Of a DNA stretch of 64,000 bases, positions 43,617 to 49,955 are shown in pieces (positions within the stretch are counted from its first letter, which is position 1; each line of letters starts with the position of its first letter). The DNA lies in contig OX597830.1 in assembly GCA_951406725.2 (NCBI GenBank), positions 47,182,001 to 47,246,000 of the forward strand, given 5' to 3'. The notes beneath the pieces were generated by a model. The model ran no database searches. It was not told the origin of the DNA and was given only the letters and a program-made list of their open reading frames with translations. This DNA is from Octopus vulgaris (taxonomy: Eukaryota). The position numbers and the translations under genes were made by a program.

Positions 43617-43652
<36 letters not shown>

Positions 43653-43821
43653 ATAATAGTTATCGCCATACTAATATGGCATTCTTATAAAAATAAGAAA
43701 AAAGCTGTCCGCTTATTAGCTCCATGAGGCCATCGCCTTAAGTTAGCTATTTGATACACAAACTGTATCCATATAACCTTCGAACAAGGGAGGTCAGTCG
43801 CTCCACACTACTTGACCGGCA

Positions 43822-43863
43822 GCTACAGACGCGTTTCGGGGTATTGCCCCTTTTCAATGCAGC
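43822..43863 (-). ncRNA. Minimal type I hammerhead ribozyme, U3-A8 variant
   Basis: Exact reverse complement of 44321-44362. Confidence 0.82.
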
Positions 43864-44320
43864 GTAGCCAGCCAGTAGGTGTCGCTTCCGACAATCTCTG
43901 TTCGATGGTTTTATTTACCTAGATTCGGTGGAATACATCCACTTGTTTTCAATAATAGAAATATTAAAATAACTAAGTCTCTCTAAAAGAGAACAGCGGC
44001 AGCGTTCCCGGAAAATAATAGTTATCGCCATACTAATATGGCATTCTTATAAAAATAAGAAAAAAGCTGTCCGCTTATTAGCTCCATGAGGCCATCGCCT
44101 TAAGTTAGCTATTTGATACACAAACTGTATCCATATAACCTTCGAACAAGGGAGGTCAGTCGCTCCACACTACTTGACCGGCAGCTACAGACGCGTTTTA
44201 GAGAGACTTAGTTATTTTAATATTTCTATTATTGAAAACAAGTGGATGTATTCCACCGAATCTAGGTAAATAAAACCATCGAACAGAGATTGTCGGAAGC
44301 GACACCTACTGGCTGGCTAC

Positions 44321-44362
44321 GCTGCATTGAAAAGGGGCAATACCCCGAAACGCGTCTGTAGC
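44321..44362 (+). ncRNA. Minimal type I hammerhead ribozyme, U3-A8 variant; predicted cleavage after C44356
   Basis: Stem I gctgca/tgtagc; core TTGAAAA; stem II gggg caata cccc; GAAA; palindromic loop cgcg; T-C cleavage site. Confidence 0.82.
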
Positions 44363-44588
44363 TGCCGGTCAAGTAGTGTGGAGCGACTGACCTCCCTTGT
44401 TCGAAGGTTATATGGATACAGTTTGTGTATCAAATAGCTAACTTAAGGCGATGGCCTCATGGAGCTAATAAGCGGACAGCTTTTTTCTTATTTTTATAAG
44501 AATGCCATATTAGTATGGCGATAACTATTATTTTCCGGGAACGCTGCCGCTGTTCTCTTTTAGAGAGACTTAGTTATTTTAATATTTC

Positions 44589-44639
<51 letters not shown>

Positions 44640-47205: not shown

Positions 47206-48221
47206 TATAAGAAAAAGGGACAGGCAACAGGTTGCTTGACCGCATACCGAAAAAATAGAAATAGCAGTGAATGCTTATTTCTATCAAAGTTGGACTCCGG
47301 GCACGACAAACCCTGTAATTTACATATGCAAAACAGAAGGAATAGATAACGAAAACGAAGTCTGGTGGTTATCTGTGAACATCATGTTTCTGGATTATAA
47401 ACATATTGAATATATATTTCATATATATTTTTGATATATATTTCATATACATTGCATATATATTTCACATCCTTCTTCAGCACAGCTTTCCATTGAAAAA
47501 GATTTATCATAGATTTGTCAAATGCTACGTACCTCAAACCTTCTGACCATGCGACATCAAAATATTTGAAGAAAGTGAGCAAAAGCTCAAACCTACATAG
47601 ACGTTTGAATTCGTAAATCTTCCCTCCAAAATTTTGCCATGCGCACTACAAAAATAGTTCCATAAGATTGGGAACTATTGGGTTGTCATAAGGGAGTGAA
47701 AAATCCAAATAGTAATATATATTTGGATTTTTCACTCCCTTATGACAACCCAATAGTTCCCAATCTTATGGAACTATTTTTGTAGTGCGCATGGCAAAAT
47801 TTTGGAGGGAAGATTTACGAATTCAAACGTCTATGTAGGTTTAGCTTTTGCTCACTTTCTTCAAATATTTTGATGTCGCATGGTCAGAAGGTTTGAGGTA
47901 CGTAGCATTTGATAAATCTATGATAAATCTTTTTCAATGGAAAGCTGTGCTGAAGAAGGATGTGAAATATATATGCAATGTATATGAAATATATATCAAA
48001 AATATATATGAAATATATATTCAATATGTTTATAATCCAGAAACATGATGTTCACAGATAACCACCAGACTTCGTTTTCGTTATCTATTCCTTCTGTTTT
48101 GCATATGTAAATTACAGGGTTTGTCGTGCCCGGAGTCCAACTTTGATAGAAATAAGCATTCTTGACTGCTATTTCTATTTTTTCGGTATGCGGTCAAGCA
48201 ACCTGTTGCCTGTCCCTTTTT

Positions 48222-48756: not shown

Positions 48757-49084
48757 TGTGTGTGTACACATACATATACATAAATATATAAATATATATA
48801 TATACATACATATAGTGTCGGTGACATACGAGTGGGTATATATCTATAAAAATGAAGTTTCAAAACGCCACTATATACGATAAGAGTTTAATTTTCTGAG
48901 AGATTTTACATGTTTCGGTTTTTCTTGGAAAAACGAACCTTATCAAAAATATATATTTTTTAAAGTTAAGTGTAATAAAAGAAGTTCATAATTATTTCTT
49001 ACTAGTTTCAACAGAGTCCACGTGGTAGGGTTTTATGTGCGGGAACATAATGGCTGTCTTATGCGTTGACTAGAATCGTTGGCT

Positions 49085-49151
<67 letters not shown>

Positions 49152-49224
49152 AGACCGTTGTGGTTGGAGTTGTAGCAGCAGCTCATTGTCTGTAGTAGTG
49201 GAAGTGAACGTTGGCCGTAATAGT

Positions 49225-49955
49225 GGATAATTCCTATTTATGAGTGTAGTTCTGAGTTCCTGGAGACGTGTGTGTCGGGTGCTTGTGTCTGATTTATGGT
49301 GCAAATCCTTCTGGCTAAATAGAAAGGGACGGACATTTATTCTTGTGTGTCTTGGGTGGCATGAGTCAAAGGGTAGGTACTGCTTTGAGTCTGTCGGTTT
49401 ATAATTGATACCCGTTTCTATTTTGTTGCCGACTTTCTTAATGAGGATATCTAGAAATGGTAGTTTTTCCTGGTTATGTTCTATCGTGAATTGGATGTTT
49501 TCATCAATTCCATTTAGTAGTATTTTAAATTCCTCAAGTTTTTCTATACTTTCATCCTAGAAGATGAAACAGTAACCGAAATATCTTTTCCAGTTGTTCT
49601 GGATATAGGTGGAGAAAGAGTTTCCATATTTCTCGAGTGTTTTCTGGTAAAGTATTATTTCGAGGTATCCCATTACTAGGTTGGCAAAAGAGGGCGCAGT
49701 ACGTGTACCCATGGCTGTTCCCGATCTTTGTCTGTAAGAGTCATTATTAAATATAAAGTAATTGTTTTCTAAGATAAATCTCAGTCCTTCTATTATGAGT
49801 TCTTTATTTATGCGAGTTGGGAGTTCAAAAGAGTAGTTGTTTAATCAGAAATTGATCGCTTCTATTCCTAGGGTGTTGGGTATGTTTGAATAAAGGTTAA
49901 CTACATCGAAGGATACTAGTAGGTCTTTCTCATTAACTGTTTTTTGGGAGGTGGT
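49225..49955 (-). pseudogene. Penelope-like element reverse transcriptase and thumb fragment
   Basis: Reverse: LVSFDVVNLYSNIP, ILENNYFIFN..YRQRSGTAMGTRTAPSFANLVMGYLE, WKRYFGYCF (decayed RYIDD), IQFTIE..LPFLDI, YKPTDSKQYLPFDSCHP, LARRICT, LINRNYP. Confidence 0.93.

Follow-up and report, generated by a model that had tools for sequence, protein, structure and literature searches.

The window, a 64,000-nt stretch of the Octopus vulgaris genome, contains a head-to-head insertion of a short tandem repeat in a (TA)n microsatellite, the left and right parts of which lie at 43618–43651 and 44592–44636. The left arm (43652–44198, minus strand; 547 nt, 1.51 units) has its RNA-sense 3′ end at unit position ~175 (site A) and its 5′ end at unit 354, and the right arm (44196–44594, plus strand; 399 nt, 1.10 units) runs from unit 202 to unit ~238 (site B), with its final 2–3 bases merging into the TA tract; unit positions are numbered from the predicted hammerhead cut. 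The tandem period is 362 nt, the unit has a GC content of 41.7%, and the 5′ ends of the two arms are linked by a 3-nt microhomology (TTT, 44196–44198), such overlaps being in excess family-wide. An earlier, sequence-only reading of the window had described longer-than-unit arms in opposite orientation, their join at TTT, outward-facing 3′ ends in (TA)n, identical copies and a non-coding unit, and all of these hold: both 3′ ends enter (TA)n, the repeated parts of both arms are 100% identical or complementary, and the longest open frame in any frame of a unit trimer is 55 codons. Both arms carry a rare variant (44261, plus strand; T versus the family A), and the 25-mer that includes it occurs six times in the genome: two copies are inside the window, one is in a near-identical 338-nt sister of the window copy (L161), and the remaining three are on other haplotypes. 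This search for the variant 25-mer found no donor of the window copy. Elsewhere in the window (~47645–47789), a long near-perfect inverted repeat of MITE-like appearance was seen in Rfam alignments.

Each arm carries one type I hammerhead motif, in agreement with the claim of a complete predicted ribozyme per arm. In the right arm, the motif (44321–44362, plus strand; called from motif and fold) has a predicted cut after C44356; in the left arm, the complement of this sequence (43822–43863, minus strand) has a predicted cut between 43828 and 43827. Helix I of the right-arm copy (6 bp) pairs 44321–44326 with 44357–44362, the core occupies 44327–44333, helix II (4 bp) spans 44334–44346, and helix III has 2 bp with a palindromic loop. 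The core pair C3-G8 is replaced by U3-A8, a natural covariation that is reported as active (PMC3088659). The minimum-energy fold of 71 nt gives helices I, II, and III (z = −2.96), and an Rfam scan returned no hammerhead match at the motif, even at E 10; thus, the ribozyme call rests on motif, fold, and family. In a covariation test on 26 copies, 87.6% of the predicted pairing is retained, versus 33–41% when the pairing is slid, and for nine pairs the covariation does not beat a shuffled control (32 of 500 shuffles equally high). Folding the monomer as a circle (z = −5.7; 0 of 100 shuffles as stable), together with pair counts on relatives, predicts a long interrupted stem that extends helix I (44271–44414, plus strand). 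This stem would place both ends of a cut monomer close together, but it is equally possible in a linear multimer, and hence is no proof of a circle.

The 30-nt ribozyme core is present as 892 exact copies across many contigs of the 2.8-Gb genome. We analyzed 86 stretches, comprising 26 from the best DNA matches (four duplicates dropped) and 60 that cover the first 100 listed core matches minus three places, a sample that is skewed to young, long copies. At a threshold of at least 85% identity to the unit, these stretches yield 152 arms, with a median identity to the window unit of 98.9%. The copies are dispersed over many contigs, lack LTR structure, and have a characteristic arm anatomy. Among the 142 arms that end at site A or B, 91 extend beyond one unit, 24 of them beyond two, and the longest reaches 7.6 units. 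These data uphold the proposals that the family is recently mobile and that it forms multimers. Older relatives (~70% alike; 30 loci read among 2,286 first-look candidates) have retained the period and, in many cases, both end sites; none of them has an attached PLE (Penelope-like element) ORF. In public sequence runs, the unit is present as a single 392-nt contig (two runs), and contigs of four runs guessed to be RNA span the unit and link its end to its start; however, a genomic tandem would yield equal contigs, so neither observation is counted as evidence of RNA, and none of the public records that hold the unit is on record as RNA. Near-identical unit words also occur in public runs under seven organism labels.

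The RNA-sense 3′ ends of the 152 arms are concentrated at two sites: 69 at site A (unit 165–182, mode 175) and 73 at site B (unit 226–242, mode 238), with 10 elsewhere. The sites bound a ‘tail’ of ~62 nt (44532–44594, plus strand), recognized from the end counts and from the heptamer CTATTAT, which is present at both sites and nowhere else in the unit. A TA tract lies beyond 63 of the 69 A ends and 61 of the 73 B ends (124/142). The two sites are also paired with each other within insertions: the sample contains 61 head-to-head pairs (in 60 of the 86 stretches), with 52 of type AB, two BB, one AA, and six with an odd end, such that AB is found in 52 of 55 classifiable pairs (p = 8e-13). The sequence-only reading had taken the ‘differently permuted’ ends as a mark of a circular template, and had proposed a genome-wide tabulation of end points in which variable permutation would support this. 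Neither expectation is borne out in the 86-stretch sample, where sites A and B account for 142 of 152 arms and each pair has one of each; two fixed, paired ends are as in PLEs, and what was read as ‘different permutations’ thus corresponds to the two start sites of PLEs.

The same reading had envisaged arbitrary priming: microhomology would position the start wherever a circle is TA-like, and the permutation would vary accordingly. The presence of CTATTAT at both end sites, and single arms whose ends lie close to other TA-like points (unit 64 and 111), are in keeping with this, but the unit has seven TA-like points, of which practically only two (170 and 233) serve as ends, and the arms follow the A-plus-B rule; arbitrary priming is thereby largely refuted, and we regard it as very unlikely. 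Because arms hardly ever end at the other five TA-like points, base pairing to the nicked tract may assist initiation but does not determine the site. At two loci (L011:1894 and L029:1894), B ends enter (CT)n instead of (TA)n; each stops five bases short of the usual point, at a CT in the unit, which is consistent with primer pairing. In B arms, the base at unit 186 (window 44542) is invariant in all 71 first rounds, whereas 7 of 52 later rounds have a change to A, G, or T (p = 0.002, which does not survive correction for the 362 positions tested).

A chimeric-read artefact, which the sequence-only reading had named as an outcome that would overturn it, is ruled out by the presence of head-to-head pairs in 60 of 86 stretches and by head-to-head joints, at other positions, in contigs from two other public runs. 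The window junction itself is bridged by no listed contig in four public runs; this is what an assembly artefact, or a satellite spread at the DNA level, would predict, although it proves nothing for a young polymorphic insertion. The combination of fixed 3′ ends with variable 5′ ends, the spread over many chromosomes, the A-plus-B rule, and the joints in other runs make either explanation scarcely credible.

The junctions between arms overlap by at least 3 nt in 35 of 61 pairs, versus 5.5% by chance, which supports the proposal that two cDNAs on opposite strands of a TA microsatellite were joined by microhomology. The 5′ ends are variable, but 13 of 142 fall at the predicted cut (unit 359–8) versus 4.7 expected (p ~1e-3, with the width of this interval picked after data inspection), suggesting that RT in vivo encounters cut RNA or stalls at a ligated junction. 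Five of these 13 arms exceed one unit. A second cluster of 5′ ends, at unit 32–45 (window 44388–44401), includes 25 of 142 and was matched in 0 of 5,000 uniform simulations; it is also found in solo arms. This cluster sits in the 5′ strand of the predicted long stem; RT stalling at the stem, palindromic microhomology, and a transcription start are candidate causes.

The end pattern directs attention to PLEs resident in the genome. Searches with PLE protein and GIY-YIG families gave 27,456 first-look candidates and revealed at least three PLE families that are young and have long open frames; 99 PLE loci were compared with the unit. The first family is intact, encoding a 451-aa ORF1 and an 811-aa RT/GIY-YIG ORF2, the CxxxxCxxC linker of which is of the Neptune/Nematis type as defined by Craig et al. 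2021 (bioRxiv 10.1101/2021.04.23.441226). Its copies have two ends ~43 nt apart in (TA)n, with a long end paired with a short end at three loci (L113, L114, and L125; a fourth inverted locus, L126, was not scorable), and the motif in its pLTR is likewise U3-A8. A young intact PLE at L111:2170–5915 (minus strand) forms tandems of ~4 kb; its 451- and 811-aa ORFs overlap, suggesting a frameshift or intron, and its pLTR hammerhead looks reduced. The other young families comprise near-identical copies with open frames up to ~1,200 aa (L167–L196), and elements with 781-aa frames and a repeat-rich 3′ region (L203/L208). The window also contains a broken PLE fragment (48910–49943, minus strand), which is interrupted by stops and matches the 811-aa ORF at 57% across 240 aa; after it comes a pLTR-like end, in which a hammerhead-like motif of the U3-A8 form lies near 48952.

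The unit might itself be the pseudo-LTR (pLTR) of a longer autonomous PLE, with the loci being 5′-truncated copies, a finding that the sequence-only reading had likewise said would refute it. The ends, inversion, and target are as in PLEs, and just three young families were sampled out of many. Nevertheless, successive units of an arm, as many as 7.6, abut directly without an intervening ORF, and BLAST and profile comparisons detected the unit as a terminal repeat in 0 of the 99 PLE loci, a small sample of the PLEs of this genome; we therefore judge the pseudo-LTR explanation improbable. An RT/GIY-YIG ORF is absent from the unit, and none is attached in the loci analyzed. Unit matches at L168, L215, and L178 are apart from the PLE 3′ end or on the opposite strand. 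A short likeness of the unit to PLE 3′ regions was judged to be due to chance. No helper was found by relatedness, the pLTRs of the three young PLE families being unrelated to the unit. We conclude that the insertion in the window is most probably recent and belongs to a young, non-coding hammerhead repeat of 362 nt (a non-LTR retrozyme), likely mobilized in trans by a PLE enzyme.

The form of the RNA template can be approached through sequence variants shared between rounds and arms. Diagnostic non-CpG variants are common to all rounds of an arm in 113 of 118 cases, diagnostic variants are common to both arms in 73 of 78 cases, and copy divergence is 0.62% within loci versus 2.0% between loci. 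The shared variants and the low within-locus divergence indicate that both arms derive from one type of RNA, and that multimers repeat one monomer. That each insertion carries a single haplotype favors a monomer that was read repeatedly, possibly as a circle. An array can also be homogenized afterwards by conversion or unequal crossing-over, and adjacent units have variants in common at L086.

Four variants were flagged as register-specific among 9,157 informative sites. Two of the four are common variants that are absent from one copy; in the other two (L004 and L049), a variant is present in the upstream unit of both arms and absent downstream, which fits a linear dimer or conversion between arms. 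These two cases compare with 0.03 expected by chance and 15–30 under a rough linear-donor model of our own that assumes donor units diverged by 0.16–0.33%. We read this as predominantly monomer re-reading, via a circle or a template jump, together with some linear dimers. A ligated circle would be the simplest form of a re-read monomer, and we consider it about evenly balanced against template jumps.

In its full form, the circular model would have a PLE dimer reverse-transcribe a single small RNA circle, produced by the ribozyme, starting simultaneously at two fixed sites (one for each DNA strand) and rolling around the circle to write both arms; to this we assign somewhat less than an even chance. 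With the same element and helper, the template might instead always be linear, a read-through or partly cut multimer, with no circle and with arrays homogenized later. Multi-copy linear RNA was proposed by Frangieh et al. (PMC11167929), and the register-specific variants at L004 and L049 accord with it, as do the uncut predicted ribozyme inside L049, which also ends at the cut site, and those cut-ending arms that are longer than one unit. However, the clear register-specific cases amount to just two, well below the rough expectation for linear donors, and the fixation of 14 diagnostic non-CpG variants across units requires repeated passage through a monomer; an exclusively linear template is accordingly possible but rather doubtful.

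The family shares features with two described groups, as far as these are characterized in the accessible portions of the cited sources. Animal non-LTR retrozymes have a non-coding tandem unit of 150–450 nt (350–390 nt in mussel) with <45% GC (PMC7229834; bioRxiv 10.64898/2026.07.22.740005); the octopus unit is comparable in being non-coding and tandem, with one type I hammerhead motif per unit and with monomers to multimers, and the co-existing PLEs proposed as helpers in metazoans (PMC7229834; bioRxiv 10.64898/2026.07.22.740005) have a counterpart in the young PLEs that co-occur with the octopus family. Compared with those published retrozymes, the octopus family has a U3-A8 core and is described here with fixed end sites, an inverted arm, and a microsatellite target; circles have been demonstrated for published retrozymes, whereas the octopus family is known from DNA. 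No TSD is readable at the octopus insertions because the target is (TA)n.

PLE copies are recognizable by a tail delimited by two fixed ends, by partial tandems, and by a truncated copy in inverted orientation (Craig 2021, bioRxiv 10.1101/2021.04.23.441226). For an anole PLE, a predicted dimer, in vitro work showed nicking of both strands and initiation of reverse transcription at two adjacent internal sites that bound the tail; the starts lacked homology to the target, and the ribozyme was dispensable (PMC11167929). The octopus family resembles EN+ PLEs, in the available descriptions, in having partial tandems, a 5′-truncated copy inverted at the 5′ end, a tail carried by just one of the ends, two sites where RT starts, a hammerhead within the repeat, and targets that are microsatellites or AT-rich (Craig 2021; PMC11167929; PMC4209133). 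It differs from them in that the unit has no ORF, the tail is ~62 nt rather than the 30–40 nt in print, the start sites are TA-like so that pairing with the target is possible, and the pairing of the two sites has been counted (52/55). Non-autonomous Chlamys PLEs such as MRC1 are green-algal and helper-like at the 3′ end (Craig 2021), and no such likeness was found for the octopus unit. By its sequence features, the element is thus a candidate animal non-LTR retrozyme that appears to work like a PLE without being an autonomous PLE.

The strict two-arm rule across copies suggests that PLE-type enzymes paste them in. A PLE RT/GIY-YIG protein, probably as a dimer, would nick both strands of a TA tract and, from the same RNA, likely hammerhead-cut, synthesize one cDNA from site A and the other from site B; the TA-like end motif could base-pair with the nicked tract and thereby aid the start of each cDNA. 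Both cDNAs would extend 5′-ward, often beyond one unit, and annealing of their ends would produce the inverted junction. Most multimers would be generated by re-reading of one monomer, with a minority derived from linear, partly cut dimers.

The sequence-only reading knew of no description of such a system in cephalopods. This stands insofar as we found no cephalopod retrozyme in the published literature (the supplements of the cited papers may list cephalopod hits), but the kind of system has already been described in molluscs, namely in mussel. The element class is therefore not new; what is new is a member with a clear mechanistic footprint. Among papers judged by titles and the beginnings of abstracts, we found none on the anatomy of retrozyme insertions. 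PLE mobilization of animal retrozymes and the circle as template are both standing hypotheses, and a 2026 preprint that adds PLE co-occurrence and pLTR relatedness calls the mechanism unresolved (bioRxiv 10.64898/2026.07.22.740005). To these the octopus family contributes an insertion footprint: a near-strict rule of different start sites, 5′ ends enriched at the predicted cut, and one haplotype per insertion. With the two start sites, the target, and candidate intact helpers named, the mechanism becomes testable in vitro. Rolling-circle retrotransposition of animal circular RNA has so far been a hypothesis; if the circular model is true, this family would constitute an in vivo record of that process, and would provide a minimal 362-nt substrate for it.
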